64,000 nt of DNA from Alphaproteobacteria bacterium (GCA_965262615.1 OZ253545.1:32001-96000); one strand, 5' to 3'. Shown: positions 1,781 through 18,683, numbered from the stretch's first letter. Notes: generated by a model not told the origin, from the letters alone. Translations and numbers: made by a program.

Positions 1781-3133
1781 TCAATAAGACACCAAATCAT
1801 ATAATGCTTCCGTCTCGCCGTTCCAACGTTGCAACAACTGATGAGCAAATGTTTCTTGGTCTCGTGCTTGTTGCCACAAAGGAGCAAGATAGAGCGATTC
1901 GTCTCGTCCCTCGTCATCCACGATGTGTCGTCTGATCAAAGCTTCTTGTGCCATTTCCAACAAATCCAAGATGAGATGGTGCACAGTCTCGGCGGAATTG
2001 GTGTTGATTTTGCTGGCAAAACCATCCTTCATGATGGCTTCGCGCAATGCCTCTCGGTGCTCGTGTGATGATGCCCACGCCTTGATGCGATGCCACACAT
2101 CCGCAATGATGCTGGAGTCATAGAGCAATCCCGTCCACAAAGCCGCCAGTGCACAGATGGCTTGATGATGTCCGCCATCCGCCCCGCGCACCTCCAAATA
2201 ATGCTTCAGACGCACATCGGTAAAGACCGTGCTCATGTGATCGCGCATGTCGGCAAATGTGGCGCGTATTCCTCGCGCCTCGGGCAATGTGCCCGCCATG
2301 AAGTCACGAAAAGAACGCCCCGCCACATCATGATACGCACCGTCACGGCGATAAAAATACATCGGCACATCCAACAAATAAGAGGCATACCGCTCAAAAC
2401 CAAAACCATCCTCAAACACAAAGGGCAAATCACCGCAGCGGTCATCATCGGTGTCGCGCCACACATGAGAGCGATAACTGAGCCAATCGGTGCGAACCCC
2501 CTCCTTGAGAGGTGAGTGGGCAAATAAAAATTGAACCACCGATTGCAGTGCCAGCGCAATGCGAAATTGCCGCACCATCGTGGCTTCGCTGTCAAAATCC
2601 ACATTGACCTGAATGGAACAAGTGCGCAGCATCATGTCCAGCCCCAAGCTTCCCTGCTGCGGCATGTAGCGGCGCATGATGTCGTAGCGAGCTTTGGGCA
2701 TCCAGTGAATCTCATCCCGATGCCAGAAGGGAGCAAACCCCATGCCGAACAAACCCAAATGCAATGGCTCGGCGGCTTTGCGACACTCGCGCAAATGACG
2801 CGCCACTTCCTCACAAGTGCGGTGAATATTCTTCACCGCCGCCCCTGACAGTTCAATCTGCCCCCCCGGCTCTAGCGTGATGGATGCGTTGTCTTTTTGC
2901 AAAGCAATCAGTGTGTCGTCTTCATACACCCCCTGCCAGCCGTGGACGATGAATTGTCGCAGAAATGATTGCACCCCTCGCGCGCCCTCGTAGGGCACCG
3001 GAGCGAGGTTTTTTTTGTCAAAAAGAAATTTCTCATGTTCCGTGCCGATGCGCCATTGGTCACGGGGGGTGATTCCCGATTCCAGATAGGCGGCGATGGC
3101 ATCGGGATTTTCTATGATGTCATCTTCGTTCAT
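1781..3133 (-). CDS. gshA: Glutamate--cysteine ligase (GCS2, alphaproteobacterial/plant type)
   Basis: Motifs RIGTEHEKF, ITLEPGGQIELSGA, MPKARYDIMRRYMP, GLDMMLRTC and YLEVRGADGG. Confidence 0.95.
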   Translation of the reverse strand: MNEDDIIENPDAIAAYLESGITPRDQWRIGTEHEKFLFDKKNLAPVPYEGARGVQSFLRQFIVHGWQGVYEDDTLIALQKDNASITLEPGGQIELSGAAVKNIHRTCEEVARHLRECRKAAEPLHLGLFGMGFAPFWHRDEIHWMPKARYDIMRRYMPQQGSLGLDMMLRTCSIQVNVDFDSEATMVRQFRIALALQSVVQFLFAHSPLKEGVRTDWLSYRSHVWRDTDDDRCGDLPFVFEDGFGFERYASYLLDVPMYFYRRDGAYHDVAGRSFRDFMAGTLPEARGIRATFADMRDHMSTVFTDVRLKHYLEVRGADGGHHQAICALAALWTGLLYDSSIIADVWHRIKAWASSHEHREALREAIMKDGFASKINTNSAETVHHLILDLLEMAQEALIRRHIVDDEGRDESLYLAPLWQQARDQETFAHQLLQRWNGETEALYDLVSY

Positions 3134-3890
3134 GGTGCGTCATTCGTGCCAGTTGCAAAAGAGAGAGTGCCAAAAATGCGGCACTATCCACTCTATAGAA
3201 GTTTTGTCCCAAATGCACCTGTTCAATTGTGCTGGCGGATGGATGGCGGGCGACCCAATGACACTCCTCATCGCTCCAGCCGCCCTCAGAGCCAATGATG
3301 ACTCCCGCGCCAGAAGAAACATCGCCCTGCGCACAATGATGCCATAGATGTTGCGTGGGGTGAGAGGCATCATAGGGATGACAAAAAAACAACCGAACCC
3401 GAGATGACCAAATGTCAATGGCTTGAGCAAAAGAACAAAGGGGCTTGATTGTGGGGCATGAAAGTAACCCGCATTGTTCGGTTGCCGCCATGGCAACCGC
3501 AATTGATGATGCATGGTTGATGGAACGGCGCGCTGAGTGATGACTCACCACAGGCTGAATGACATCACAGCCGGCTTGGACGGCTTGTTCAATCACATGA
3601 TGCCAACGAGACCCCTTAGGCGGCGCACACAACAACACAAGGGGTTGTGATTCATCCACTGCCCGTAGCTGTTCGCCCACAGAAACGACCAAACATTCCT
3701 TGCTGATGGAGCGAATCACGCCGTGCCATTCACCATCACGCCCATTGAAAACACGCATCTCATCACCCACTTTTGCCCGCAGAACATGAGCCAGCTTGTG
3801 AAAATGACCATGCCTCCTGTCAATTGTGATTTTGACCCCATGCCCAAGAGATTCATTCACCAAAAATCGTCTGAATGTATGAAGGTTCAC
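3120..3890 (-). CDS. rsmE: 16S rRNA m3U1498 methyltransferase
   Basis: HVLRAKVGDEMRVFNG, AATEQCG, IIGSEGGWSDEE and LGQNFYRVDSAA (a divergent LGxRILRxETA). Confidence 0.88.
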   Translation of the reverse strand: MNLHTFRRFLVNESLGHGVKITIDRRHGHFHKLAHVLRAKVGDEMRVFNGRDGEWHGVIRSISKECLVVSVGEQLRAVDESQPLVLLCAPPKGSRWHHVIEQAVQAGCDVIQPVVSHHSARRSINHASSIAVAMAATEQCGLLSCPTIKPLCSFAQAIDIWSSRVRLFFCHPYDASHPTQHLWHHCAQGDVSSGAGVIIGSEGGWSDEECHWVARHPSASTIEQVHLGQNFYRVDSAAFLALSLLQLARMTHHERR

Positions 3891-3988
3891 GGTTCACGGT
3901 TCACAGTTTATGGTTCATGGTTCACAGTTTATGGTTCATGGTTCATGGTTCATGGTTCATGGTTCATCATCATCATCATCATCATTAT
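3884..3988. repeat. 12 x 7-bp tandem repeat (GGTTCAC/GGTTCAT/AGTTTAT) followed by a (CAT)n run
   Basis: Units counted directly at 3884-3967, then six CAT at 3968-3985. The array overlaps the predicted rsmE start. Confidence 0.92.
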
Positions 3989-4048: not shown

Positions 4049-5809
4049 TTACAAGGGACCGAGACCGTCAAAGGTGTAACCAAGTCCAAGAGAGATGCGG
4101 TTGTCATCAAACCCACCGTAATTGAGGATTCTGCCGTCTTGCACACCGCCACGCCCAAGCACCGTCACATTGCGTTCTTCATGGTCCAGATAAGTCCAAT
4201 CCATGCGCATGAAGAGATTGTCATAAAGGACACTTTCCACCCCCAAGCCAATGCGATAACTGCCCAATCTGTATTTGTCCACCTCCACAGACGAACTACC
4301 AAGAGTCGCATCGGCGATACTATTACAGGGATTTGTAACATCAGCATTGGATGTGAAATTGGAACTGTGATTCTCGTTTTCAAACTGCGTCCACCCATAA
4401 CCGCCCTTGAGATAAACAAGGGTCTGTGGCGTGAAGCGATAGCCCAACCGTCCCAAAAGGGCAACATCAGAGTGGCGTTTGAAAACATCGCTCCTGACAG
4501 TACAGTTATTAACCGCTGATTGTCCTGCTCCCGTTGTCGCACCCGGCGTTAAACCGTAGTTTTTCGCCACTTCACTCTCAGTGGGGCTACCGAACTCAAT
4601 TTCGCTTCCCAAATAGATGCCATCCAATTGGGATCTTTCAAAAACACGCCCCATGTCAAACCCATAGCCAACGAAACCTGCCCAGCCAAAGAAGTCCTGA
4701 CCAAAATCATTGCTCTTGTTTGTCCTGGTATTGCTCGTGCCAGAGGTGGTTCTCCAATTTGTCGAATCGGACTCGTTGTAAGCGGCATTGCTGTGGTGGA
4801 AGAGTGCTCCAGCATAGACACCATCACCGACCACGCCGCCTCTGACCTTCATGTTCTTGTGCTCGCCCTCACTGCCCGGATAGAAGGTAAAGCCCACCTG
4901 CAATGAATATGTGCGAGCGGCATACTGACGGTTATCACCTGTTCCTGTCGCCAAAACTGCGTCGCGACTGCCCGAATCACGAGTATCCAGCGCGTCCAGA
5001 GAATCATCGTAATCTCTGACAAGCCAGCCAAAGCGCAAGGCACTGCGATCACCAATGGCGATTTCCGAGCCGAAACCAAAGTTCCAAGCGTGGGCAACAT
5101 CACGAGAACCACGCACCTGAGAAGAACCACGGCTTGCTATGTCATAGAATCCCATGCTGTAGCCCACCTGCGTATAGAACAAATGATAAGGCTGCACCAA
5201 GTAACCCATGCGGGTGGAAAAATCCAAATCATAATCCATATTAACCGTGCGCGACCTCATATCAGAAGTTGGGGTCACACCCGCAGGGGTCGTGCTCGTC
5301 CCCGAATAGGTCTGTTGATCATCAGTATAGCTGTATCTTTTCTTGGTGATGGATGCGCCAAACTCACCTCCCAGATAGAAGCCGTGACGCTCAAACACTT
5401 CACCAACTCCCAGAAACATACCAAATCCACTGTTGTCACTAAAGGCGTTGAGGCTGCCATCACCCGCCGCTTGCGTAGCATTACCGGCAGCAGAACTATT
5501 TCGTTCCATTCTGCTGGCGTTATCCCGAACGACACCGCTGGAATTTTGCAACAGGAATCCCAAATAGGGACCCTCAAACATATAGCTGCGAGAGATGATG
5601 CGTCCTCTGCGTATGTCGCGAACTTCCGGCTCGAAATCCTCATCAGCAAATTCAAAGGTGGTGTCTTCAAATTCGTCATAATACTCTTCTTCGTCTCCGA
5701 CATCGGCAAACGATTGAGACACACTCAACGACACCGCCAAGAGAATCATCACCAACAAACGAAGGTGACCATCGGTATCCCTTTTTAAGAAATTAGCAAG
5801 CATTGACAT
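4049..5809 (-). CDS. Outer-membrane protein with two tandem Omp25/RopB-like beta-barrel domains
   Basis: Signal peptide (...SQSFA) and an acidic N-terminal segment. Domain 1 runs FEGPYLG...SLQVGFTF; domain 2 runs DGVYAG...RLGYRFTPQTLVYLKGGY...DNRISLGLGYTF. Confidence 0.8.
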   Translation of the reverse strand: MSMLANFLKRDTDGHLRLLVMILLAVSLSVSQSFADVGDEEEYYDEFEDTTFEFADEDFEPEVRDIRRGRIISRSYMFEGPYLGFLLQNSSGVVRDNASRMERNSSAAGNATQAAGDGSLNAFSDNSGFGMFLGVGEVFERHGFYLGGEFGASITKKRYSYTDDQQTYSGTSTTPAGVTPTSDMRSRTVNMDYDLDFSTRMGYLVQPYHLFYTQVGYSMGFYDIASRGSSQVRGSRDVAHAWNFGFGSEIAIGDRSALRFGWLVRDYDDSLDALDTRDSGSRDAVLATGTGDNRQYAARTYSLQVGFTFYPGSEGEHKNMKVRGGVVGDGVYAGALFHHSNAAYNESDSTNWRTTSGTSNTRTNKSNDFGQDFFGWAGFVGYGFDMGRVFERSQLDGIYLGSEIEFGSPTESEVAKNYGLTPGATTGAGQSAVNNCTVRSDVFKRHSDVALLGRLGYRFTPQTLVYLKGGYGWTQFENENHSSNFTSNADVTNPCNSIADATLGSSSVEVDKYRLGSYRIGLGVESVLYDNLFMRMDWTYLDHEERNVTVLGRGGVQDGRILNYGGFDDNRISLGLGYTFDGLGPL

Positions 5810-6000: not shown

Positions 6001-7368
6001 TTATAAGCCCCACTGGTCAAACGCATAAATGACGGCAAGACTAATGCGATTTTCTTGAATGTTATGCAGGGCTCTGTTGTCACCAATGGTGAAATCCAGC
6101 ACATCGGCATAAGTCCAATCCAATCGGGCGGTGATGTTGTCGTAGACGACGCTTTCAATTCCCGTTCCCACAGAAAATCCGTTGACAAAAGTTTTAGCCG
6201 AAGTGGCACTGCTGCCCCCCTGTTCATACTCCAAGCGCACCCAGTTGTAGCCGCCGCGCGCATACACCATCGTTGCCGGCGTATACAGATATCCAATCCG
6301 CACACCCCAATCAATGGCAACGGGACGCTTGATCTCAGAATCACTGCCCTCATAGACAGTGTGAGAGACCAAGTTCGTGTCAAGACGCAATTCAGTTCCC
6401 AAGTAAATGTCTCTTCGTCCCTTGAAGAAGCGATTGGATCCGATTCCCACAATGCCGCCCACACTGCCGCCTCTCATGCCGACACTATCGCTACTGGCGG
6501 CTGTGTTGCCATCACGCAAATCAGCGGCACTGCTGTATTGACCCTTCACCCCCACATAGACACCATTGAACACAACGCGATTCACCTTCATTCGGCGAGC
6601 ATCAGGACGCTCCTCAAAGCGATAGACCAACCCCACCCGAGAGGTAAAGCTGCGGGGTTTGAGTTCGGTGCGCGGATTATATGCTCCCAAAGACAATTCA
6701 TAATAATCTCGCATCGCCCAATCCAAACGGAAGAAGGCGTTGCCGCCGAGGGACGCCTCCATGCCCAAGCCCACATGATACCCATGCAACAACTGAGCCT
6801 TCTCCAGCGTGATGGTATCGCCTTGCCTGTAATTATAATTAAAGTTGCTGGCACTGTATCCGCCCTGCAGGAACATGAGCGCGCCGTCATGAGAGGCGTA
6901 GGATAATCTCATTCCCACATCAAAGTCGTAGGTGTTTTCCAGATTGTAGAAATCAGTCGCCGACCGAGAAACATGCGTACGCCGCTTAATGATAGAAACC
7001 GACGATGCACCGCCCACATAAAAGTGATGACCATTCTTTGCCATGACCATGTAATCGTATCCGCCATAGAAAGTTCCTCCCATGACGCTCTGCAATCCGC
7101 GATCCTCCGCGCCGTTTGCGCTGGTCTCATTGGAGTATCCCGTTCCGTAGGCGAGTCCAGCCCCGCCGTGACTGCCCTCAAAATAACGAGACTCAGGTTG
7201 CAATGACACACGATCCATTGGCATGGTGTCCGATGGCATGGCATCGGTTTGCATGGTGTCATATGACATGTCGTCATATTGGGCGTGGGCACTGCTCGCC
7301 ATCACACCGCCAAGAGCAAAGCTCAGAACGGCAGCAACGAAGCAAAAATAAGGTGTTTTCATTGTCAT
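6001..7368 (-). CDS. Second outer-membrane protein with two tandem Omp25/RopB-like beta-barrel domains (paralog of 4049-5809)
   Basis: Signal peptide (...SSAHA). Domain 1 runs FEGSHGG...RVGLVYRF; domain 2 runs FNGVYVG...RIGYLYTPATMVYARGGY...ENRISLAVIYAF. Confidence 0.8.
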   Translation of the reverse strand: MTMKTPYFCFVAAVLSFALGGVMASSAHAQYDDMSYDTMQTDAMPSDTMPMDRVSLQPESRYFEGSHGGAGLAYGTGYSNETSANGAEDRGLQSVMGGTFYGGYDYMVMAKNGHHFYVGGASSVSIIKRRTHVSRSATDFYNLENTYDFDVGMRLSYASHDGALMFLQGGYSASNFNYNYRQGDTITLEKAQLLHGYHVGLGMEASLGGNAFFRLDWAMRDYYELSLGAYNPRTELKPRSFTSRVGLVYRFEERPDARRMKVNRVVFNGVYVGVKGQYSSAADLRDGNTAASSDSVGMRGGSVGGIVGIGSNRFFKGRRDIYLGTELRLDTNLVSHTVYEGSDSEIKRPVAIDWGVRIGYLYTPATMVYARGGYNWVRLEYEQGGSSATSAKTFVNGFSVGTGIESVVYDNITARLDWTYADVLDFTIGDNRALHNIQENRISLAVIYAFDQWGL

Positions 7369-7575: not shown

Positions 7576-8538
7576 TTATACTTTAATCTGGGGCGATATA
7601 TTGAGTGAGCCTTTTTCATTGCTCTTGATATAGCCCGTGTCCTTGCTGTCAAAAATGGCTTTGGTGAGTTCCAGCAAAATCAAGTTCTTCACCTCTTTTT
7701 CATTGTCGCTATCGGTCGCCATCACAGAATCCAGTATTGCCCTGTGAGAATTCAGGGCATTTTGTCTCTGCCTGTTGAGATTGTATAAGTGCCGTTCCGC
7801 CGCATGACCCTTAGAAAAATGGGCAATCAAAAATATCCCCAGAGACAAGACAAAAAATTTAAGCAAGGCATTGCTGACAAACATCCCATAATCTACTTGA
7901 CCATCTTTTGGAAAAGATGTGCCATCAACATAGAAGGCAACGGCAAGAATTGCCGTAACAACAATACAGCCTATCATAGTCCGAAAATTTTTATGGGCTC
8001 TTCTTTTATTCTCCTTTGCCTCATCCCCAAAGAAAGTGCCGAATTTTTCTCCCTCTTCTTTCTGCTTTTCTGTTTGAGCACTTTGAAGAAGCTCCTCTGC
8101 TTTTTTCACATTGTCCAAGCCACCCTTGAGGGCATCTAAAAGTTTTTTCGCCTGTTCTTCAGTATTCTTTAGCTTTTCATCCTCATGAGAGCCAATAGCT
8201 CGCATATATTCTCTGACCGTAGAAGTGCGTTGAATGATGTCACTTTTCTTGTTTTTAATCTTGCTGATATAATTTTCCTTTTCTGCCGTATCTCCAAAAT
8301 TTCTCACATCTTGAGCAAAACCAAAAAAATTTTGCAATAGATTTTCCATTTCTTGTACACGGTTATCGGGCAAATCGGCAAAATTTGGATGGAATAAAAT
8401 ATCATCAAATACCTTTTTGATTTGAGCAAAATCCTTTTCTGCTCCTTTTAAATTATGGTTGCCCAAGTCCTCACGGAGCAACGCGTTCCACGCCAATTGC
8501 TCGTATGCTTTTTTTATATCGGGATTAAGTTCAGCCAT
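7576..8538 (-). CDS. Hypothetical protein: coiled-coil N-terminus, two predicted TM helices, cytoplasmic C-terminal domain
   Basis: 320 aa, AT-rich. Hydrophobic segments MIGCIVVTAILAVAFYV and LLKFFVLSLGIFLIAHF; K/E-rich helical region. Confidence 0.8.
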   Translation of the reverse strand: MAELNPDIKKAYEQLAWNALLREDLGNHNLKGAEKDFAQIKKVFDDILFHPNFADLPDNRVQEMENLLQNFFGFAQDVRNFGDTAEKENYISKIKNKKSDIIQRTSTVREYMRAIGSHEDEKLKNTEEQAKKLLDALKGGLDNVKKAEELLQSAQTEKQKEEGEKFGTFFGDEAKENKRRAHKNFRTMIGCIVVTAILAVAFYVDGTSFPKDGQVDYGMFVSNALLKFFVLSLGIFLIAHFSKGHAAERHLYNLNRQRQNALNSHRAILDSVMATDSDNEKEVKNLILLELTKAIFDSKDTGYIKSNEKGSLNISPQIKV

Positions 8539-8576
8539 CCTGACACCTTGAGGAATTTTACCCCTTCGCTCTCACA

Positions 8577-8819
8577 TCAATGCTTCTTGTCACGCGGTGG
8601 GAATGGGTCATTGCCAGGGGCAACCGTGTCTGAATCCCGCCATCTGCCATATTTATTTTGTGTCACAACTTCGCCGCCGCCATTATTTTCGACTATTTCC
8701 TTTGCAGCTTCTTGGGCTTGTGCTTGCGTTGAGTGGATACTAGAGGCTCGCTGTGCATTAGGTGCTTTAACAGCCCAGCCATCTGGGTGTTTGACGACAT
8801 ATCTATTATTACTTGACAT
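8577..8819 (-). CDS. DUF2188-family small protein
   Basis: YVVKHPDGWAVKAPNAQRASSIHSTQAQA...GEVVTQNKYGRWRDSDT...GNDPFPPRD. An AGGAG RBS precedes the ATG at 8819. Confidence 0.85.
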   Translation of the reverse strand: MSSNNRYVVKHPDGWAVKAPNAQRASSIHSTQAQAQEAAKEIVENNGGGEVVTQNKYGRWRDSDTVAPGNDPFPPRDKKH

Positions 8820-8939
8820 TGCTTTGCTCCTTGATTTTGGAGTTTGGAAAAATGGTCTATAAGACACAAGCCTTGCAGACATCGACACCATTTATGGTAG
8901 CCAAAATATAAAAAATGTCAATATATTGTGGAAAATAAA

Positions 8940-8968
8940 TTTTGCGGTGTGAATTTTACACCGCAAAA
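8940..8968. terminator. Inverted repeat / probable terminator just outside the att site
   Basis: TTTTGCGGTGT-N7-ACACCGCAAAA, a perfect 11-bp stem ~20 bp downstream of the tRNA 3'-end copy. Confidence 0.65.
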
Positions 8969-8986
8969 CTCAACGCTTCATCTTTT

Positions 8987-9039
8987 TGGCGTAGAGGGGG
9001 GGGGGATTCGAACCCCTGATACGGCTCAAAACCGTATAA
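8987..9039 (-). repeat. att site: degenerate duplicate of the tRNA-Ser 3' end
   Basis: Matches 18591-18640 (TGGCGGAGAG...GATTCGAACCCCCGATACGGCTCAAAACCGTATAA) with 2 substitutions and the G run expanded from 7 to 10. Confidence 0.93.
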
Positions 9040-9775
9040 TGTGTTCCTCTCTGTTATAGACGCGTTGAATGTTGGTGAGAAAAAGATTGCCGGTCTTACT
9101 GACGGCTCTGGCTTCATCTTGAATGTGAATGTTGATTTGAAAGTCATTTCTCCAGTTGCGTCCTTCAAAGCCGTTGTGAGGGATGACGGGATCATTCAAA
9201 AATATAGCGCGTCCTTCAAAATCATCGCGCAGGCGATCCAGCACGATGATATTGGGCGCAATGAGCAAGAAATTGCGAGCGAGATTTGAATTGTCCTCGT
9301 AGGTTTTGTGAAAGAAGCTCCAAGCGATGGCGAGGCTCATGGTTTTGGTCTTGCCGCTGCCTGTTGCCATTTTGACAACCAATCTGCGCCAATGCTCTGG
9401 AAACATACCAGCTGACACCGCCCCTGAGCTGTCAAAACGCATGAGGTCGTATTTGTCTTTGAATTCAATCACCTCATGCAGATAAATGATGGTTTCTATG
9501 GCTTCTCTTTGAGCAAAATAGTATTGAAAAAGCGAGCCATCCTCTTGAGGGTGGTCGGTTGCAAACCACCATGTGAGAAGGGCGCGGCTGGTGGCGGAGC
9601 ATCCCTCGTAGTTTGTGTCACGCCATTTTTTGACGGCGGTGCGTAATTGCTCCACCAGAGGCGGCAGCAGACAATCATACCCCATGCTTTTCAGCCCATC
9701 AGGCGTGGGATACCAACGCGTTGACGGGTCAACAATGTCATGAGGCGATAAAGGAAAATCCTTACCAAGAGGCAT
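9026..9775 (-). pseudogene. res: Truncated type III restriction endonuclease Res subunit (N-terminal 249 aa only)
   Basis: YYFAQREAIET, Walker A KMATGSGKT, LLIAPNIIVLDRL and LTNIQRV. The ORF runs into the att repeat and stops before the DEAH box, helicase C-terminal and nuclease domains. Confidence 0.88.
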
Positions 9776-9802
9776 AATCCTGTCCTTTCTTTTGGTCTGT
9801 TT

Positions 9803-12031
9803 TCATATCCTTACCTCAATTACGGTCATGGAGTCGTTGCCGAATATGTCTACCACTTTGATGGCGACTTTGCGAGTGCCTGAGTCGCATTCTATGGGGG
9901 TGGTGATGAATTCCAGTTGTTTGTTTTTCTTGGTGCGGAAGCTTTGCCATTCGTTTTCAAAGATGAAGTTTCCTGTGGTCATGACATCCATCTCTGTGCC
10001 GTCCTTGCCATCGGTGAGGATGACTTCGGGCTTGCTTTCGTAGTTGAAATCCACCGACCAGTAGTCAATCCAGTCCGACCATTTTTTGGTGATGGTTTGC
10101 TGGGAACAAATGCCGTTGGTGTCCTTGCTGATTTTAACAAGCTGCCCGCGCTCCAGTATGATGGTGCTGCCGCCGTTTTTGAGGTTGGCGATGGCGGTCT
10201 CCATGGTGCCCTCATTGTAGGCGACCGAAAACCCAGTGAGTTCTATTGCCAGCATGGTTTTTTTGCCCTTGCCTGTGATGTGAGGCTTGGCTTCAATGTA
10301 GGCGATGTCGTGAAACACCACCTGATTGCGCTCCACGGCTTTTTTGTCAAACACATCACGGGGGATGTATTTGAGAGCCAGCATCACCCCTTGTTGCTTG
10401 GCTTCTTCTTGAGCGTGGGTGTTGAGGGACATTTCAAACTCAAAGGCAAGAATATCCACATTGATGATGCCGCGCCGTTTGCATTCCGCCACCACCTCAT
10501 CCACAAAATGACCCGTGACCGGCAGATTGATGGGACCCACCACCACCATGTGATTGCCCTTTTTGCCATGAAACATGGCGTCCGATGCAATGGACTCGGC
10601 GGCATAAGCTCGCAAAATGAGCCTGAGATAGTCCTGTTCTTTGACGCGCCATTGTTGAGCCTGTTGGTCATCATTGAGGTTGGTGTTGATGCCCACATAG
10701 TGCTGTCGCTCATACTTGCCCAGATTGAGAATCTCAAACGCGCGATAGTCCATGCCGTTCTTTTTGAGCTGTCGCTGCACATTGATCATGCGCTTTTTGG
10801 TGGTGTGAATGGCGAATTTGCCCAAGTCGGAGCAGATCCACTTGCGTCCCAGCTTTTCCGCCACCGCCGCGGTCGTCCCCGAACCACAAAAAAAGTCAGC
10901 GACAATATCGCCTTCTTTTGTACTAATATTTAAAATCCTCTCTAAAAGGTCTTCAGAATTTTCTGTAGGATATTTTGTTGTAAAAGAATATCCCGGAATA
11001 TCTGTCCAATTTGTATCTAAAGCCATTGTATCAGATGGCTTTACATAATACTCAAGACTATTTAGCTTCTCATTGAACCTCAATGTACCTTCGTCTATCA
11101 TTCTTTCCATGCGCTTTTGATTAAACTTAAAATGTTTCCCCGACGGCGGATAAAAAACCCGCCCAAACAAATTTCTTTCTCTTGGCTTCCTTTCTCCATC
11201 ACTATCATCCGTTCTTCTCCAATAGCCTTCTCTTATCTTGTCTCTTTTTTTGTCAATATTTATGAATTGAGAATCCTTTGATTGGAAATATACGAAAAGC
11301 GTATCTGTCGCGACAGGCAGAGAAAGTCTTCCTTGAGAAGTGACATTTTTTTTAATTCTATTTACCAGAATTTCTGACTGGAAATGTTCTTTTCCAAAAA
11401 CTTGGTCGAGCATAACCTTGACATAGTGTCCCCAGTGATGGTCAATTCTTAAAAAGAAAATTCCATCATTTGAAAGCATATCTTTCATTAATTGAACACG
11501 CTCAAAAAGCATACTTAAAAAAGTGTTCCCTTGGTTGCCCCATGTATTTCTATATGCAAATTCCTCCAGAATGGATGGGCTTTTGACAAATGGCTCGTTA
11601 GAATTATCATCACCAATATCTACCTTAATAGAGTAATCCAAACCAGCACTAAATGGTGGGTCAATATAGATGAGTTTGATGCCTCCTGCCTCCTCAATCG
11701 TGCGGCGCGTGTTGCCGCTTTTGAGGGATGACAAAATGAGTCTATTATCGCCCCAGATGAGTTTGTTTGCCCAGCCGCTGATTTGTCTGCCGCTGTGGGC
11801 ATCAAACAATTCCCCTTGCTGATGCCGCACCTCTTCGCTACGGGGTTCATCCACCTGTTCAATGGTTTGAAAGGGCAGCACCACATTGGTGACATCCTTG
11901 GTCTTGCCATTCCACACCAGCTCCACCTCTCGCTGGTCACCAAACAACAAAAACCGATACTTCTCGTCCAACGCCTTGCCATCCTCAAGCAAGCGGGTGA
12001 TATCTCTGATTTCATTGTCGCTCAAACGCAT
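9803..12031 (-). CDS. mod: Type III R-M modification subunit (N6-adenine DNA methyltransferase)
   Basis: NKLIWGDN, motif IV IYIDPPF, motif I ADFFCGSGTTAAVAEKLGRKWI, and C-terminal IAIKVVDIFGND-type motif (VAIKVVDIFGND). Lies directly upstream of res. Start at 12031 preferred over 12079. Confidence 0.93.
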   Translation of the reverse strand: MRLSDNEIRDITRLLEDGKALDEKYRFLLFGDQREVELVWNGKTKDVTNVVLPFQTIEQVDEPRSEEVRHQQGELFDAHSGRQISGWANKLIWGDNRLILSSLKSGNTRRTIEEAGGIKLIYIDPPFSAGLDYSIKVDIGDDNSNEPFVKSPSILEEFAYRNTWGNQGNTFLSMLFERVQLMKDMLSNDGIFFLRIDHHWGHYVKVMLDQVFGKEHFQSEILVNRIKKNVTSQGRLSLPVATDTLFVYFQSKDSQFINIDKKRDKIREGYWRRTDDSDGERKPRERNLFGRVFYPPSGKHFKFNQKRMERMIDEGTLRFNEKLNSLEYYVKPSDTMALDTNWTDIPGYSFTTKYPTENSEDLLERILNISTKEGDIVADFFCGSGTTAAVAEKLGRKWICSDLGKFAIHTTKKRMINVQRQLKKNGMDYRAFEILNLGKYERQHYVGINTNLNDDQQAQQWRVKEQDYLRLILRAYAAESIASDAMFHGKKGNHMVVVGPINLPVTGHFVDEVVAECKRRGIINVDILAFEFEMSLNTHAQEEAKQQGVMLALKYIPRDVFDKKAVERNQVVFHDIAYIEAKPHITGKGKKTMLAIELTGFSVAYNEGTMETAIANLKNGGSTIILERGQLVKISKDTNGICSQQTITKKWSDWIDYWSVDFNYESKPEVILTDGKDGTEMDVMTTGNFIFENEWQSFRTKKNKQLEFITTPIECDSGTRKVAIKVVDIFGNDSMTVIEVRI

Positions 12032-12209
12032 CAGGGCATGATAAGCACATCGGCACGGAATGAAAAGCCAGAAAAACATTATATTTACTTATAATGAGTT
12101 AAGAGTTACCAAAAAATCTTTGCTCGTTGAATAGCTCTGTCAGGTAAGGTAGATTATTCTCAAGGAGGGTAGTTCTGTCCTATTCTGGACAATCAGAAGC
12201 AGAACTATA

Positions 12210-14222
12210 ATGGTTGTGCCAGTGGGTTGGATAAGTCAGCTAATAGGGAAATTTACGGGGTGGTTTTGTCGTGTCCTGAAAAGATTCACTGACCCTTCTT
12301 CTGATAAAAACGAAAACTCATCGCCTGATGCCTCTACGCCAATTCCACCTCAACTACACCCCAACACTCACCCGCCAATTTTGCCAGAACATCAATCTTC
12401 CACCGAAGATAATCAAAGCGAGCAAAACCAAAAAGTCAAAGGAAATCATCCCGCAGACATTCCAGGGCGACGGAATCCGAAGCACACAGAATCAGAGCCC
12501 GAAGCTAAGGAAAAAGAATCGTCATCCTTCCGTCCTCAATTGATGTGTCGGAGAAAGGCTGGTGCTTGGCAGGTTATTGTGTCTGGGAATGAGGAGTGTC
12601 CCATCAAAGGGGTGCGTCTTGGGAATCAAGATTTGGAGGTCATCAATCAAGAATGTCCCATAGACTCACTGGAGGGACATCTTGTCACTTGGTCTGAAAA
12701 TGGGGATAAACGCGAAGTCGCGTTATTCAATGGCGAGCCTCTCATTTTCAAATTTTCAAAAAACTGGAAGGGCACGGAGATTTCTCAAATCACGAACGGT
12801 CATTTCATCGTCATCGCTCCTGCCGAATGGACAAGGGTGGGCGACAGGCGAGACGCTGGTGGGGCGGAGCCTTGTAAAGATGAAAAATTCAGGGCGCATT
12901 TTTTCTCTCGGAATAAAAATGATTCGGATGAGGAAATCAAAGGTTTTGAAGGACAGCCGCCCCTTCCTGTTGGTTTGAGCATAGAATGGGATGGCGAGAG
13001 AGTCTTTGATGACTCGGCGGACGAAGGCATCCTGTTCGTTGGAGATGCTCCAAAGCCCGTATTGTCACCAGATATTGCGAGCGCACGAGTTGTAGAGGAA
13101 ACGGAAGATGGTGGCGGTTGGGGGGAGAACTTTATTCCAAGTGATGAGAAACTTGCAAAAGTTTTGAACGGCAGAGAGGGACATTTTTCTCTTCGCATTT
13201 ACGCGCGTGGATCAAGGCGTGAGCTTGATAGCAAGCAGTTTCGTTATATGAGTCAATTGAAAGAAATCCGTGTTGATGATGAGTCATATACAGCCGCCAC
13301 CGCTATCGCGCCCACATCTGCAGGATATTCACCAACGGAAGTGCAATTCATTGCCAGAGACGGCAGCAGGCTGACTCCGAAATCATTACCCGAATTTTCT
13401 CATGCGAAGCTGGTGGGGGATGTCATTAAAGTTCCACCACACCATAAAGCAGATCGCATTGTTTGTGCTCTTGAGACAAAGACCAATGATGTGCAGATTG
13501 TGTTACAGCTGCCAAAAATATGGTGGCGATTGGAGAGCGATGGCGATGATGCGGGTGAATGGAGTGACAAACCCATCACCATGACACGAGAGGAATTTCG
13601 TGATCATGCTCGCGATGAGATAAAGATTTCAATCTTATCCAAGCGATGCAAATTGGTGCATACGGGATTCAACGACAAGCGGGATAAACAATACTCCCGC
13701 AAAGAGCAGGATGAGTGCATTCAAATTCCCTTGTATGCATTTGATGACAGGCTGCCAACTGAGCCAGAATCTCGTGCCCCTCTTCAATTCAATGTTGAAT
13801 GGATGGGAACAGTCACGACACTCATTCAGTTTGTTTCGCGACAAGGTGCAAGTGAAACAAAGTCGCTCCCTCGCACCGTAAAGCCAAGTTCCAAAAATGA
13901 AGTAAAGGGCGTTAAAAGAAACTACGGTTCTGATTCGTTACGAGATACGAGTAGAAAAAAGCCGCCCACTCTTCCAAAAGTCAGGCTCATCAAGCCAGAA
14001 GCCACCGCCGTTTGGCTGGTGGAGAATAGTTCTCTCACTTTTAAGCAGATTGCGGATTTTGTTGACATGCATGTTCTGGAGATTCAGGCAATTGCGGATG
14101 GCGAAGCTCATGCCGACCTTATAGGTGAAGACCCCGTTAAAGAATTGCATCAGCTCACCAGAGAAGAGATTGAACGCTGTGAAAAAGACCCAGAAGCTTC
14201 TCTCAGACTTAAAGAAATTTAG
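12210..14222 (+). CDS. Hypothetical 670-aa protein with a C-terminal DUF1013/TrcR-like module; partner of the downstream helicase
   Basis: Pro/Gln-rich disordered N-terminus, beta-rich core and basic linker. Ends LIKPEATAVWLVENSSLTFKQIADFVDMHVLEIQAIADGE...DPV...QLTREEIERCEKDPEASLRL, which matches the DUF1013 N-terminal consensus as recalled. Confidence 0.8.
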   Translation: MVVPVGWISQLIGKFTGWFCRVLKRFTDPSSDKNENSSPDASTPIPPQLHPNTHPPILPEHQSSTEDNQSEQNQKVKGNHPADIPGRRNPKHTESEPEAKEKESSSFRPQLMCRRKAGAWQVIVSGNEECPIKGVRLGNQDLEVINQECPIDSLEGHLVTWSENGDKREVALFNGEPLIFKFSKNWKGTEISQITNGHFIVIAPAEWTRVGDRRDAGGAEPCKDEKFRAHFFSRNKNDSDEEIKGFEGQPPLPVGLSIEWDGERVFDDSADEGILFVGDAPKPVLSPDIASARVVEETEDGGGWGENFIPSDEKLAKVLNGREGHFSLRIYARGSRRELDSKQFRYMSQLKEIRVDDESYTAATAIAPTSAGYSPTEVQFIARDGSRLTPKSLPEFSHAKLVGDVIKVPPHHKADRIVCALETKTNDVQIVLQLPKIWWRLESDGDDAGEWSDKPITMTREEFRDHARDEIKISILSKRCKLVHTGFNDKRDKQYSRKEQDECIQIPLYAFDDRLPTEPESRAPLQFNVEWMGTVTTLIQFVSRQGASETKSLPRTVKPSSKNEVKGVKRNYGSDSLRDTSRKKPPTLPKVRLIKPEATAVWLVENSSLTFKQIADFVDMHVLEIQAIADGEAHADLIGEDPVKELHQLTREEIERCEKDPEASLRLKEI

Positions 14223-14273
14223 TCATTGACGAATGGGAGAAGAGGGCTCACCCTATATCCGTTGAGGAGCGGC

Positions 14274-17200
14274 ATGATGGCAAACGAAGTTGATATAAAG
14301 CATCTCAAGCAATGGACGAAGAGAATTCACCAACGCTATGTGGATTATTTGACCACCTCATTCTTTTTCTCAGACCCTGATTTGCGCCGATCGTTTCGTG
14401 ATGCTCTTGGCAAAGAGGGAAGGCTGCAGAAAGAGGCTTCAGAAGAACATTTTGAATTCAAAAAGGGAATGCACGCTCATCAATTGGCGGAAAAAATTTT
14501 TGCAGGCAAAAATGTGAGTGATCTTAAGCACGCATTAATTGGTGATGCGTTGTATGACCATCAAGAACAAGCCATCAAAAATGCCTTTGCGAAGCAAAAG
14601 AATTTGGTTGTTGCTACTGGGACTGCCAGTGGCAAGACCGAGAGTTTTCTTTATCCCATTTTGTTTGAATTATTTCGCCAGCACCTTGCGGGAGATTTGA
14701 AAAATCCTGGGGTGCGCGCCATGATTCTGTATCCCATGAATGCACTGGCGAACGACCAGCGCGAACGCTTGGGAGAAATTTGCAAGAAATTGAAAGAGGC
14801 AGGCTCTCAGTTCAAACCGACATTTGGGCAATACATTGGGCAAACTCCAGAGGACGAAAAAAACGAGTGGCGCAATGCGTCCGAGCGCGAAAAAAATCGC
14901 TTAGATGGGGAACTGGTTTTTCGTAAAGAAATGCGTGACACACCGCCTCACATTTTATTGACCAATTATTCAATGCTGGAATATTTGCTCATTCGCCCCA
15001 AGGATACTCCTCTGTTTGATGGTGACAGAGGCGCGCATTGGCAGTTTCTCGTTCTGGATGAGGCGCATCAGTATCGCGGTGCCAAGGGGATGGAAATCGG
15101 CATGCTGATGCGGCGTCTCAAGCAGCGATTGCGTGACGGGGGGCGGCAAGATTCTTTTCGCTGCATCGCCACCAGTGCCACCATGTCATCGCGCGAAAAT
15201 CAAGAAGACAGAAAGGCGATTGCCGAATTCGCCAAAAAACTTTTTGACGAGCCTTTTGCCGAGGATGACATCATATTTGGCAAAAGGGAAAAGGTTAAAG
15301 ATGAAAGCACGCCGAGCCGCCATCATGCCTTTTTGCGTGGGCTTCAGGGTGCGTTTCTTGTCCATAAGAATGGCAAGGACACTGTGGCACTCAATCGCAA
15401 GGATGAGGACGACAGCAAAGAAAAAAGCGAACCTCTTGAGATCGCGCTGTGCCGCGAATGCGGACAACATTATTATGTCGGCAAAGAACAAGATGGCAAA
15501 CTGAGAGAAGGAATTCGCGATCCCAGTCATGAAGAATTCGGCGTGGATTACTATCTGCCAGATGAAACGGGGAAAGGAGTTTTATGTCGGCAATGTGGGG
15601 CTCTTGCGAAGTCATCATGCGATTGCACAAATTCGGCGTTCATTGCCGTCAAGAAATGCAAATCTCACAAAGAGCATCCCGACGAATTGGAGAAGTGTGA
15701 GGCTTGCGGCTATGGGCGTGGCAGCATTGGTGACCCTGTGCGAGAGATTGTGCATGGCTCGGATGGACCGGGCACTGTGATCGCCACCACTGTGCATGAG
15801 GTGCTACACGAATTTCTTCCCGAAGACAAACGCAAAATTTTGGCTTTTGCCGACAGTCGCCAGCGAGCGGCATTCTTTGCTTGGTATATTGAGGATTCCT
15901 ACAGGAATATTCTTCACCGCAATCTCATTTACAGAGCGATGAACTCCGAAGACATTGCGGATGAAGGTTTAACCATCAACGACTTGACCCATTGCGTGTA
16001 TAAATTGTGGGAAAAGATTGGACTCTTTGAAAAACCAAGTGCAAGTAAGGCGGAAAAATCCCGTGAAGTGTCAGAATCCGTTCTGCGCGAGGCGGTGACT
16101 GATGATAAAAGGAGGTCTTTGAGTGGTGTTGGCTTGGTGAAATGGTCTGTCAAATTACACCCGAATTTGAAGCTGCCCCCCGAAATGCTTCAACCGCCGT
16201 GGAATTTCAGCGAGGATGATGCTTACGCTCTGATCCGTTATCTGCTGGACAATATGCGCTCGCATCAAAGAGCCATAAGTTTGCCAGAAGATAGTAAAAC
16301 CGCAAAATGGGCGGATATATCACCGTATGAGCAGAAGCCAAAGGGGAAGACACTTGTGCAATGGTGTAACACAAAAAATACCATTGTTGGTTGGTTTCTT
16401 CACAGAATTCTTGACGCAAAAGAAAGTGGGCTATCGGATGAAGAGAAGCACTCTTGTGCCGCAAAACTCCTGCGCAAGATTTGGTATGAATTGCGAGATT
16501 TACCAGAAAATGATCCTATGCTCATGCGTATATCGCACCGTAGCGACGCGTTTCTTCTGAATTGTGGCTGGGTGCGGGTAAAGCTGGCAAAGCCTGATGA
16601 AATTTGGCGTTGTGAAGACTGCACCACGCTCAGTAGCCATAACATTCGCGATGTTTGTCCGCGCAAGGGGTGTGGTGGCATGTTGAAACCTGTTGATGAG
16701 GATAAGCAGAAGGTTCTTGAAGGAAATCACTATCGCAAGCTCTATAAAAACGCTCATCTGCCGCCGAAACTGCGCGCGAAGGAACACACCGCTCAGATTG
16801 AGGCGAATGAGGCGGCTCAAAGACAGAGCGAATTCAAGGATGGTAAAATTCATCTGCTGAGTTCCTCCACCACATTTGAGTTGGGTGTTGATCTTGGCGA
16901 TTTGGATTGTGTTTTTCTGCGTAATGTTCCGCCAGAGCCGTTCAATTATGTGCAACGGGCTGGTCGTGCGGGGCGAAGAGATTCTCCGGGTCTGGTCTTG
17001 ACCTATTGCGACCGCAATCCGCATGATCTCTATCATTACGAAGACCCCGAACGCATCATGAAAGGTGAGGTGCGTCCGCCACAGCTGCACATGACCAACC
17101 ATAAGATTGTATCACGCCACATGGTGGCTGCCGTCTTATCTGAATTTTTTAGGGCACATCCAGAACGGTTTGAAAGTGTGGAGAGCTTTGTTGACGATTG

Positions 17201-18563
17201 GGAAGGCATGGAAGACCCGCAAGTGGCAAGTGACATTCGTCAATTTTGCAAAAAGAACAGCCAATTGAAAGAATCTTTGTGTCGCATCGTGGATGAGAAT
17301 ATGCACAAGAAAGTCGGGCTCAAGGATGATGCGTGGATTGATGAAATTGCGGGCAAAGACAGTCGTCTTGTTAAGGCGGTGAAGGAGGTTTTGAACGACC
17401 ATAAAAAACTGGAGGAAATTCTTGGAAAACTCAGTAAAGAAAAAAAATATCAAGAGTGCGACCAAATAGTGAAGCGTCAAAACACCATCAAAGGTGAGAG
17501 GGTTCTTGATTTTCTTTCACGCAAAGCGGTCATTCCCAAATACGGCTTTCCTGTTGATGTTGTTGAGCTTGACATCCATTCTGGTGATAAGAATGTTTCG
17601 CTCCAGCGCGACCTATCTCAGGCAATTGGCGAATATGCGGCGGGCAGCAAGGTGGTGGCTGATAAAAAGGAATGGATTCCCTACGGCATTAAGACAATTG
17701 CTGGTAAAAGGTGGAAGGAGCAGTATTACCACTACACCAATGCTCGCGACTTTAAGAATTGGAGCGAAGGTGAAAGCGAAGACGAAAAAGACAAACAGGG
17801 GCGTCAATATCTCATTCCAGAGTTTGGTTTTGTCACTGAGTGGTTCAAAAAAGCTCCAGAGCCACGGAGAGGGGCGCGCCGTCTCTACACGACGCGTCCT
17901 TTCTTTCCTGGTTTCAAGGATCAAAAAGAGCCAGAGTCCAAAAATATAGCGGGTGTGAATGTCACTCCCGCCACCCCTGGCACTCTGGTGATCCTTTGTG
18001 AAGGAAGAAAAAGAAATGGTTTTTATATTTGTCCTGATTGCGGTACTCAAAGAGCAGAGCGCGAGATTCCCCACAAAACACCGTGGGGTTCAACATGTAG
18101 GACACCGCCGCGTCCTTTTTCCCTCGGTCACGAATTGGAGACCGATGTTGTGTGTCTTCATTTTCCGAATCTGTGTGATGAATGGGAAGCTTATTCCGTT
18201 GCCTATGCGATGTTGTTGGGTGCGGCGGATAGATTGGGCGTTCCCGATAATGATTTGAATGTCACCATCACGGGAGGTAAAGGTAAAGACGAGTACGCAG
18301 TCGTACTTTATGACAATGTTCCAGGCGGAGCAGGTCTGGTGGCGCAGCTTGAGAAAGAAGATGTTTTTTGTGATATCCTTAAGAGTGCCGAAGCGCGTGT
18401 TCAAGGTCAATGTGGCTGTGATTCAAGTTGTTACGGTTGTCTTCGAAGCTATCGCAATCAGTTCGCACATGCAGACCTCAATCGGCAACGGGCAAAGGAA
18501 ATTCTCGAAAGTTGTGTGGGACAAATGGTTGGACAGGCAAGCTTGCCTTCCCTCAAAACATAG
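14274..18563 (+). CDS. Large DEAD/DEAH-box helicase with Cys clusters and C-terminal DUF1998 (Druantia DruE / MrfA-related)
   Basis: Q motif LYDHQ, Walker A ATGTASGKTE, YPMNALANDQ, TNYSMLE, LDEAH, ATSAT, FADSRQRAA, EHTAQ, STTFELGVDLG, YVQRAGRAGRR, LYDNVPGGAG and CGCDSSCYGCLRSYRNQ. GAGGAG RBS before the ATG at 14274. Confidence 0.92.
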   Translation: MMANEVDIKHLKQWTKRIHQRYVDYLTTSFFFSDPDLRRSFRDALGKEGRLQKEASEEHFEFKKGMHAHQLAEKIFAGKNVSDLKHALIGDALYDHQEQAIKNAFAKQKNLVVATGTASGKTESFLYPILFELFRQHLAGDLKNPGVRAMILYPMNALANDQRERLGEICKKLKEAGSQFKPTFGQYIGQTPEDEKNEWRNASEREKNRLDGELVFRKEMRDTPPHILLTNYSMLEYLLIRPKDTPLFDGDRGAHWQFLVLDEAHQYRGAKGMEIGMLMRRLKQRLRDGGRQDSFRCIATSATMSSRENQEDRKAIAEFAKKLFDEPFAEDDIIFGKREKVKDESTPSRHHAFLRGLQGAFLVHKNGKDTVALNRKDEDDSKEKSEPLEIALCRECGQHYYVGKEQDGKLREGIRDPSHEEFGVDYYLPDETGKGVLCRQCGALAKSSCDCTNSAFIAVKKCKSHKEHPDELEKCEACGYGRGSIGDPVREIVHGSDGPGTVIATTVHEVLHEFLPEDKRKILAFADSRQRAAFFAWYIEDSYRNILHRNLIYRAMNSEDIADEGLTINDLTHCVYKLWEKIGLFEKPSASKAEKSREVSESVLREAVTDDKRRSLSGVGLVKWSVKLHPNLKLPPEMLQPPWNFSEDDAYALIRYLLDNMRSHQRAISLPEDSKTAKWADISPYEQKPKGKTLVQWCNTKNTIVGWFLHRILDAKESGLSDEEKHSCAAKLLRKIWYELRDLPENDPMLMRISHRSDAFLLNCGWVRVKLAKPDEIWRCEDCTTLSSHNIRDVCPRKGCGGMLKPVDEDKQKVLEGNHYRKLYKNAHLPPKLRAKEHTAQIEANEAAQRQSEFKDGKIHLLSSSTTFELGVDLGDLDCVFLRNVPPEPFNYVQRAGRAGRRDSPGLVLTYCDRNPHDLYHYEDPERIMKGEVRPPQLHMTNHKIVSRHMVAAVLSEFFRAHPERFESVESFVDDWEGMEDPQVASDIRQFCKKNSQLKESLCRIVDENMHKKVGLKDDAWIDEIAGKDSRLVKAVKEVLNDHKKLEEILGKLSKEKKYQECDQIVKRQNTIKGERVLDFLSRKAVIPKYGFPVDVVELDIHSGDKNVSLQRDLSQAIGEYAAGSKVVADKKEWIPYGIKTIAGKRWKEQYYHYTNARDFKNWSEGESEDEKDKQGRQYLIPEFGFVTEWFKKAPEPRRGARRLYTTRPFFPGFKDQKEPESKNIAGVNVTPATPGTLVILCEGRKRNGFYICPDCGTQRAEREIPHKTPWGSTCRTPPRPFSLGHELETDVVCLHFPNLCDEWEAYSVAYAMLLGAADRLGVPDNDLNVTITGGKGKDEYAVVLYDNVPGGAGLVAQLEKEDVFCDILKSAEARVQGQCGCDSSCYGCLRSYRNQFAHADLNRQRAKEILESCVGQMVGQASLPSLKT

Positions 18564-18590
18564 GTATCATAAGGGCTTGCAGGGCACTCT

Positions 18591-18683
18591 TGGCGGAGAG
18601 GGGGGGATTCGAACCCCCGATACGGCTCAAAACCGTATAACGGATTAGCAATCCGCCGCTTTCGACCACTCAGCCACCTCTCC
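18591..18683 (-). tRNA. tRNA-Ser (anticodon GCT), CCA encoded; island integration site
   Basis: GGAGAGG...CCTCTCC-GCCA; anticodon arm GCGGA-TTGCTAA-TCCGT; long variable arm; GGTTCGAATCC. Confidence 0.97.

Follow-up and report, generated by a model that had tools for sequence, protein, structure and literature searches.

The two genes described here lie in a 64,000-nucleotide stretch of the genome of an Alphaproteobacteria bacterium (GCA_965262615.1, OZ253545.1:32001-96000; hereafter the window), in which a partner protein of 670 amino acids (aa; 12210-14222, ATG start) and a compact superfamily 2 (SF2) helicase of the DruE (YprA) family of 1429 aa (14274-18563) are encoded in the same orientation on the plus strand, 51 bp apart. 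With a probability of about 60%, they are read as a Druantia-type (III-B-like) defence pair in which a protein other than DruH serves as a DruH-analogous sensor or adaptor. The observations that carry this reading are the family of the helicase, the lack of sequence relatedness between the partner and DruH, the strict pairing and co-inheritance of the two genes, the swapping of modules at the C-terminus of the partner, and the borders of the tRNA-Ser island on which the pair is carried, divergent from a type III restriction-modification (R-M) locus. A first-pass annotation, which had recognized this setting, proposed the pair as an undescribed system; this stands for the partner family and its variable C-terminal modules, which are new, but not for the helicase half, which has already been catalogued as Druantia III-B or 'III-B-like'.

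The helicase and its partner

At its full extent the helicase open reading frame (ORF) covers 14226-18563 (+) and opens with TTG; the most likely start is the ATG at 14274, which has GAGGAG in front of it, fits the N-terminal consensus of 26 relatives and yields the 51-bp spacer to the partner gene. The product agrees with the SF2 helicase of about 1430 aa outlined in the first-pass annotation, with all motifs intact (GTASGKT at 116-122, DEAH at 262-265, SAT at 301-303, QRAGRAGR at 894-901) and six CxxC motifs (at 393, 438, 475, 780, 1253 and 1386). Pfam matches delimit a DEAD domain (aa 95-308; 14556-15197; 2.1e-20), a Helicase_C domain (aa 828-902; 16755-16979; 2.1e-12) and a MrfA zinc-binding (MZB) or DUF1998 domain (aa 1310-1390; 18201-18443; PF09369, 5.8e-12), all on the plus strand, the last of which retains its four zinc-domain cysteines (C1380, C1382, C1386 and C1389). 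Pfam detected no nuclease domain in the protein, and since only 39 residues follow the MZB domain there is no room for one at the C-terminus. All seven PADLOC DruE models match the helicase, from 5.4e-170 (DruE1) to 8.6e-101, with DruE3 at 3.6e-143, in keeping with the proposed likeness to DruE; its scores of 336-566 bits nevertheless mark it as an outlier, a genuine III-A DruE reaching 2185 bits on its own model. No NCBIfam model reached its cut-off on the helicase, and matches to TIGR03817 and to MrfA were seen. Among PDB sequences, it matches 9tu7_Y ('DEAD/DEAH box helicase', 2108 aa) at 4.6e-73, 9wae_A at 6.7e-42 and Bacillus subtilis MrfA/YprA (6znp) at 3.8e-23. The best solved fold for a model of residues 1-1200, built from 27 sequences (mean pLDDT 73), is again MrfA (6znq, 3.3e-9); in this model, the insert at 333-462 is beta-rich and those at 498-741 are helical. 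Extra CxxC zinc-binding inserts and BrxA-like or MarR-like inserts have been described for the Druantia-ARMADA branch (Bell et al. 2025), and CxxC clusters lie at 393-478 and 780-800 in the window's helicase. The protein aligns end to end with its relatives and, judged by sequence, is a member of the DruE/YprA defence-helicase family. The model PDLC00035, considered as a model of compact III-B helicases, was rejected, as it corresponds to the N-terminal 1460 positions of 2080-aa III-A helicases.

The architecture of the partner was predicted with AlphaFold2 from 67 sequences (mean pLDDT 77, pTM 0.62). An N-terminal helix (aa 6-24; 12225-12281, +) leads into a disordered linker (aa 24-104), in which a basic motif (aa 81-90; 12450-12479, +) is conserved; its consensus is PRxIGGRR, with P81 and R88 nearly invariant. 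The family-defining conserved core (aa 105-545; 12522-13844, +) is modelled confidently as all-beta and, in the predicted structure, is an array of about four immunoglobulin (Ig)-like or fibronectin type III (FN3)-like beta-sandwich domains; it is followed by a second disordered linker (aa 547-590) and a small helical domain (aa 596-669). A search of the ESM Atlas with the core gave no usable match. C222, H230, R293, E297 and R329 are the invariant polar residues of the partner, and D224, D267, D340 and R345 are nearly invariant. C222/H230 and R293/E297 (12873-12899 and 13086-13100), together with D224, D267 and D340, might form a metal or ligand site; the invariant residues stand out in an otherwise fast-evolving beta-sandwich protein. 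In an Arenicellales locus (L041:8076-10412), the segment matching aa 328-500 is present in three tandem copies, which indicates that the beta-sandwich array can expand.

At the level of sequence, the partner has no detectable relation to DruH. None of the PADLOC models, DruH models and those of the other Druantia and DISARM partners included, matched it even at E<=10, in line with the failure of the first-pass annotation to recognize it, and NCBIfam, with its YjiT family, likewise gave no match. Alignment of profiles by hhalign (67 partner sequences versus 21 diverse DruH sequences) returned a probability of 0.42%, and single-sequence profile-profile tests against Escherichia coli DruH returned 0.6% and 0.4%. 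As a positive control, E. coli DruH, from the reference pair of strain Sakai, matches 10 PADLOC DruH models and scores 987 bits on YjiT_fam NF038336. Precomputed tags tell the same story: 42 of 43 DruH homologues carry PF27205 and 41 of 43 carry both PF27205 and PF27201, compared with 0 of 24 partner homologues. The partner thus falls outside the strict definition of DruH (YjiT / STY4851-ECs_5259; NF038336; PF27205 plus PF27201; PADLOC DruH3), a protein of which the structure is available as PDB 9tud_A.

The sole Pfam match of the partner is found in its last 47 residues, which belong to a C-terminal module (aa 591-669; 13980-14216, +) that is a copy of the N-terminal domain of TrcR/DUF1013 (PF06242 positions 1-46 of 139, 2.4e-10). 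The module is 63% identical to the product of the genome's own TrcR gene, which is kept as a second, free-standing copy at C1:182780-183013, and 42-63% identical to the TrcR proteins of 29 relatives. TrcR has been described as an RNA-polymerase-associated factor (Delaby et al. 2021, as cited in PMC12864828). In a census of 215 partner-family members, a non-random sample, the region after the core was eL13-like in 160, TrcR-like in 7 and uS5-like in 7, a different tail of 60 aa or more in 29, and either missing or below 60 aa in 12. The eL13-like assignment is based on archaeal L13e (NF008914, 2.3e-11) and on eL13 in the PDB (3.3e-4); the uS5 module covers positions 4-151 of 156 of TIGR01021 (3.6e-33). 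Among 29 further members scanned, two have a complete bS6 tail (PF01250 1-90 of 90; 6.6e-25 and 8.3e-23) and one has a MacB_PCD tail. The core stays the same from member to member, and what is exchanged is the module beyond the disordered linker. The literature search found no publication joining DUF1998 with L13e. The longest partner ORF (L040:5388-9461, 1357 aa) has sigma-70 regions 2, 3 and 4 upstream of the core and also matches PADLOC MzaA (2.5e-63); this arrangement could be a true fusion or an ORF-calling artefact, that is, an over-extended ORF.

Spread, pairing and place among known systems

No description of the partner family was found in the searchable literature. A word-indexed search with the partner gave 24 clusters, and searching 1.84 billion representatives with a core profile retrieved 936 proteins at E<=1e-3, 828 at <=1e-10 and 606 at <=1e-30, the family size of 936 being counted in clusters at 50% identity. 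A survey of one genome per species yielded 46 loci, all in metagenome-assembled genomes, which by genome title come from Gamma- and Alphaproteobacteria, Rhodothermales, Latescibacterota, Poribacteria, the SAR202 cluster, Binatia, Bryobacterales, Spirochaetia, Thermoanaerobaculia, Limisphaerales and Thermodesulfobacteriota. The helicase lies directly downstream of the partner, on the same strand, in 43 of the 46, so that the anticipated order of the two genes holds as a conserved two-gene module. The three exceptions are a contig end (L011), a truncated partner (L029) and a locus (L010) where NsnA and NsnB come next. In the latter (L010:9985-12335), NsnA and NsnB (6.2e-145 and 4.6e-104) stand in place of the helicase, which was not found in the remaining 5.4 kb of that contig. 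When 594 ORFs from the loci were clustered, only the partner and helicase families occurred in more than three loci, and no third conserved gene emerged. Intact helicases measure 1396-1453 aa in all 38 relatives and intact partners 578-1357 aa, and when each ORF is taken at its longest, partner and helicase overlap by 4-11 nt at 31 of the 38 intact loci; visibly broken copies of the pair were seen in L004, L022, L035 and L039.

Pairwise identity averages 41.7% in the partner core against 65.6% in the helicase, and in 740 of 741 pairs the partner has the lower value; the distances of the two correlate (Spearman 0.89). Together this indicates that the genes travel together and that the partner evolves faster. 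Defence genes often adjoin the pair, as had been predicted: with PADLOC at E<=1e-8, 21 of the 133 ORFs within two genes of the pair matched, in 17 of 45 loci. The flanking families include type I and type III restriction endonucleases, Avs2, NsnAB, PDC-S01, RmrA, SIR2, GajB and AbiLi/PDC-M38A.

A maximum likelihood tree of 52 helicases (1404 columns, LG+G4, quick search), from which Druantia types I, II and IV were left out and in which long branches make the deep order unsure, groups the 39 helicases that follow a partner gene into one clade (SH-aLRT 100, stem of 1.02 substitutions per site). The window's helicase is the earliest branch of this clade, and near-identical helicases occur in different orders. 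Its sister group (99) is the Clostridium butyricum pNPD4_2 helicase, the nearest named relative (35.5% identity), and III-A (7 rows) and ARMADA II (3 rows) form separate clades with support of 100 each. A search of 401 genomes of the phylum for type I helicases gave one match, which is not part of the tree.

The helicases of the 'Druantia Type III-like' branch are described in Bell et al. 2025 as most often lacking a nuclease domain. Among the entries listed in Table S1 of that work, contig JAPOVX010000017.1, which is locus L032, and the C. butyricum pNPD4_2 helicase both appear under the label 'III-B-like'. Since the L032 helicase falls inside the clade of the window's helicase, to which the C. 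butyricum helicase is sister, the helicase half is already catalogued, by way of a clade-mate matched through its contig and not through the window sequence itself. A compact DruE without PLD domains, together with one upstream protein, has also been given the name Druantia III-B (Himpich et al. 2026). DruH and partner proteins are not mentioned in the main text of Bell et al. 2025. The 'III-B-like' loci and the window have in common two genes, the partner first, and a DruE-family helicase with an MZB domain and no nuclease, but the window's partner family differs both from canonical DruH and from the upstream proteins of C. butyricum and Ralstonia. Under this label, the upstream gene of C. 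butyricum encodes 1069 aa, a 470-aa protein precedes a 1968-aa helicase in Ralstonia (L052:7499-14814), and a ParA-like 967-aa protein and a 307-aa protein precede a 2097-aa helicase in Nostoc (L053:5122-15243). PADLOC and NCBIfam gave no match for any of these upstream proteins, and those of C. butyricum and Ralstonia showed no similarity to the window's partner family. As the partners gathered under one label are mutually unrelated, 'III-B-like' hides several distinct systems.

Compared with III-A, as represented by DruH-DruE of E. coli and Pseudomonas aeruginosa, the pair has a helicase of the same superfamily in the same gene order, both partners contain Ig-like domains and both evolve faster than the helicase; III-A is also reported on tRNA-linked islands, as is the window's cassette. 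The III-A DruE, however, is about 2100 aa long with two C-terminal PLD-like nuclease domains, whereas the window's helicase has none in its 1429 aa, and the III-A DruH is described as a protein of about 1120 aa that has a helical domain at either end and for which single-stranded DNA (ssDNA) binding or nuclease activity has been reported, whereas the all-beta partner core of 440 aa has no detectable similarity to it. The two-gene type III system of Mycobacterium smegmatis (MSMEG_1253/1254), likened here to the window's pair by description and not by sequence, is reported to have a DruE of 1667 aa without a canonical nuclease domain and a DruH of 1132 aa, and to act against mycobacteriophages, both genes being required.

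Other systems share the helicase core. The MrfA/YprA-MrfB repair pair has the SF2 core and the MZB/DUF1998 domain in common with the window's helicase, but MrfA is about 750 aa long and pairs with an exonuclease, whereas the window's helicase has extra zinc-binding inserts and no exonuclease partner. A YprA-family helicase is likewise central to ARMADA type II and DISARM, yet no BrxHII-like helicase, PglX-like methylase, GajB-like helicase or DrmB/C protein is conserved beside helicases of the window's type; the ARMADA II helicases form their own clade, the methylase in the window is a type III Mod on the other strand, and the DrmA models of DISARM match the window's helicase only weakly and locally. 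PADLOC found neither DruA-D nor DruM/F/G of Druantia I/II among the window's neighbours or the 133 flanking ORFs, and the inactivated Vsr-like C-terminal domain of those types has no equivalent in the window's helicase, which lacks a C-terminal extension.

Mechanism and competing explanations

By analogy with III-A, the helicase may be the conserved motor of the system, acting on phage replication intermediates. In E. coli and P. aeruginosa, the III-A DruE starts from DNA that is single-stranded or has a 3' tail and unwinds it 3'->5'; the window's helicase would likewise engage such regions in replicating phage DNA and open them 3'->5' with ATP. Neither protein has a recognizable nuclease, and the block would thus be due to phage DNA being unwound or stalled, or to nucleases of the host. 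Both genes are reported to be needed in III-A, and the PLD domains were found dispensable in one study (Himpich et al. 2026 among the sources); with the description of III-B without PLD domains, this suggests that a nuclease may not be required. The partner would be the infection-sensing or adaptor subunit in the place of DruH, and its C-terminal module would direct it to RNA, or to the apparatus of transcription or of translation.

Several points weigh against a Druantia-type defence pair with a DruH-analogous subunit. The pair is known from its genes alone, and its defence activity and all mechanistic steps are inferred by analogy. The role of DruH itself is in dispute among four 2026 preprints on III-A, in which it is described as an exonuclease, as a dimer-dependent nuclease and sensor (Wu et al.), as an ATP-inhibited ssDNA binder without nuclease (722862) and as a monomer of unknown function, so that an analogy with DruH stands on unsettled ground. 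The III-A DruH contacts the DruE stalk on forked DNA through a C-terminal helical domain, whereas the partner as modelled has no C-terminal alpha-helical domain of this kind. The non-relatedness of partner and DruH holds at the level of sequence, and a remote structural kinship is conceivable. Within two ORFs of the pair, 28 of 45 loci have no PADLOC match, and these counts stand without a matched background control. A scan of viral contigs with the partner alignment gave 66 pattern matches, none of them a relative, and no fused partner-helicase form was found among 3190 longer candidates, which is weak evidence. Finally, the loss of the integrase and of part of the restriction gene res from the island means that the copy in this genome could be inactive.

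The partner could be a true DruH, extremely diverged and shortened, and the locus an ordinary Druantia III-B. It does occupy the position and orientation of druH ahead of a DruE-family helicase, Ig-like domains are also found in DruH (three according to Wu et al., six according to the 722862 preprint), and DruH too is reported to outpace DruE in evolution (Wu et al.). The 1069-aa upstream protein of C. butyricum, moreover, escapes all PADLOC and NCBIfam DruH models just as the partner does, so that these models miss part of what is called DruH by its position. This explanation is nonetheless unlikely in view of the hhalign and single-sequence probabilities (0.42% and 0.4-0.6%), the absence of any PADLOC or NCBIfam match and of PF27205/PF27201 tags, and an all-beta core of 440 aa that lacks the helical N- and C-terminal domains of DruH. 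Alternatively, the pair could be a guard with integrated decoys, the modules being baits that copy host proteins (uS5, bS6, TrcR and possibly sigma-70) attacked by phage effectors, and modification or binding of the bait would switch on a nuclease-free Druantia-type helicase; this proposal, too, is unlikely. In its favour, the modules are near-complete copies of host proteins (bS6, uS5, and the TrcR N-terminal domain at 63%) rather than generic nucleic-acid-binding folds, they are exchanged while the core and the disordered linker before them are kept, and the L040 ORF carries sigma-70 regions 2-4 at its N-terminal side. To our knowledge, however, bacteria have no eL13, so that the commonest module, the eL13-like one (160 of 215), cannot be a host-protein decoy. 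One module, MacB_PCD, lies outside the expression machinery, we know of no phage effector directed at proteins of the module types in these hosts, and a plain RNA-binding or tethering role fits the same data. In the literature search, no relevant work on decoys in Druantia was found, as judged by title or the start of the abstract.

The remaining explanations deny the pair an immune function, either in this genome or altogether. Irrespective of the family's role in other genomes, the copy in this 1.54-Mb genome could be a relic that has lost its function. This would fit the absence of an integrase from the island, the truncation of res at its border and the broken copies of the pair in four other loci, but is quite improbable given that neither ORF is shortened, that all catalytic motifs and the family-invariant residues are kept, and that the helicase can be aligned to its relatives from end to end. 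The least credible proposal is a helicase of the MrfA/YprA kind that serves housekeeping DNA repair together with an accessory protein. The best fold match is indeed to MrfA, the MZB domain is common to both, and TIGR03817 and MrfA sequence matches were obtained; against this, the helicase is about twice as long as MrfA, has additional CxxC-rich inserts of the sort that mark the defence branch, reaches much better scores with the DruE models and has no MrfB-like exonuclease conserved nearby. Its distribution also speaks against a housekeeping role: the partner core is absent from 30 of 30 relatives searched, the family is patchy over many phyla, near-identical helicases are found in different orders, and the window's copy shares its tRNA island with an R-M system.

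Of the widespread defence systems, Druantia is one of the least understood. One large 'III-B-like' helicase sub-clade is paired with a partner for which sequence comparison reveals no relation to DruH, and if the pair defends, it is the helicase and not DruH that would be the constant element, the sensor or adaptor being exchangeable, and neither protein would need a nuclease. The swappable modules, which point to RNA, the ribosome or RNA polymerase, would then give experiments direct access to what the system senses or where it is placed. Were the modules decoys, the logic of the pair would parallel, in bacteria, that of integrated decoys in plant nucleotide-binding leucine-rich repeat receptors (NLRs), and Druantia-type helicases would be tied to the surveillance of transcription and translation, not to DNA ends alone. 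As PADLOC 2.0 and NCBIfam would call a lone helicase here, such loci are currently missed or mislabelled.

The tRNA-Ser island and other features of the window

The right border of the island is formed by a tRNA-Ser(gct) gene (18591-18683, -), which lies 28 bp past the helicase stop codon and the 3' half of which (18590-18640) is the proximal copy of a direct repeat. The distal, attachment site (att)-like copy at 8986-9039 duplicates the 3' half of the tRNA and forms the left border. Over 41 nt (8999-9039 versus 18600-18640) the copies are identical at 40 positions, and with one indel the match is prolonged to about 8986 and 18590. The G+C content between the repeats, taken over 8001-18000, is 0.44-0.48, against 0.49-0.57 in the rest of the window. 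The 9.5 kb between the repeats hold exactly four genes, namely a stump of the type III restriction subunit Res, the type III methyltransferase Mod, the partner and the helicase; the window ORFs and a Pfam scan revealed no integrase between the repeats. The island is best read as what is left of a 9.5-kb element that had inserted at tRNA-Ser, and the low G+C content, the att repeat and the absence of the partner core from the 30 relatives of this genome that were searched are evidence that the cassette was horizontally acquired. The genome itself is a single contig, 98% complete. The sequencing runs listed included no RNA run, and three rows of small share bore the label sponge metagenome, from which no habitat is deduced. 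Beyond tRNA-Ser, the Pfam scan identified topA, dprA and plsY. Just outside the distal repeat lie a DUF2188 gene (8577-8891, -; 4.3e-18) and a 320-aa ORF without a family match (7576-8538, -).

The mod gene (9803-12079, -) diverges from the pair across a 130-bp intergenic region (12080-12209), which presumably holds the promoters, and encodes an intact type III DNA methyltransferase of 758 aa (N6_N4_Mtase 5.8e-32; PADLOC MTase_III PDLC03633 4.8e-92). The truncated res' (9026-9775, -) retains the N-terminal part of the restriction subunit, 249 aa long (Pfam ResIII 2.1e-12, profile 7-114 of 164), and its stop codon falls inside the distal tRNA repeat; a tblastn search of the window with an 804-aa Res query from L009 found no further Res fragment. 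With an intact Mod and a Res of merely 249 aa, the neighbour falls short of a full type III R-M system. The ending of the res frame in the distal repeat indicates that Res was cut at the island border and did not undergo random decay. The first-pass annotation had taken the contrast between two intact genes and a broken res as a sign of selection on the pair; this argument is weak, since Res was lost by a single event at the att repeat and its breakage therefore says little about selection.

Elsewhere in the window, twelve tandem copies of the 7-nt unit GGTTCAT (3884-3967, 85% matches) lie at the start of an ORF at 3120-3890 (-), downstream of an outer-membrane-protein gene (4049-5809, -), and this tract could be slippage-prone. 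The latter gene and its neighbour at 6001-7368 (-) are adjacent paralogues with outer-membrane-protein beta-barrel domains (2e-12 and 9.2e-15, respectively), and a 55-nt repeat near their 3' ends is common to both.

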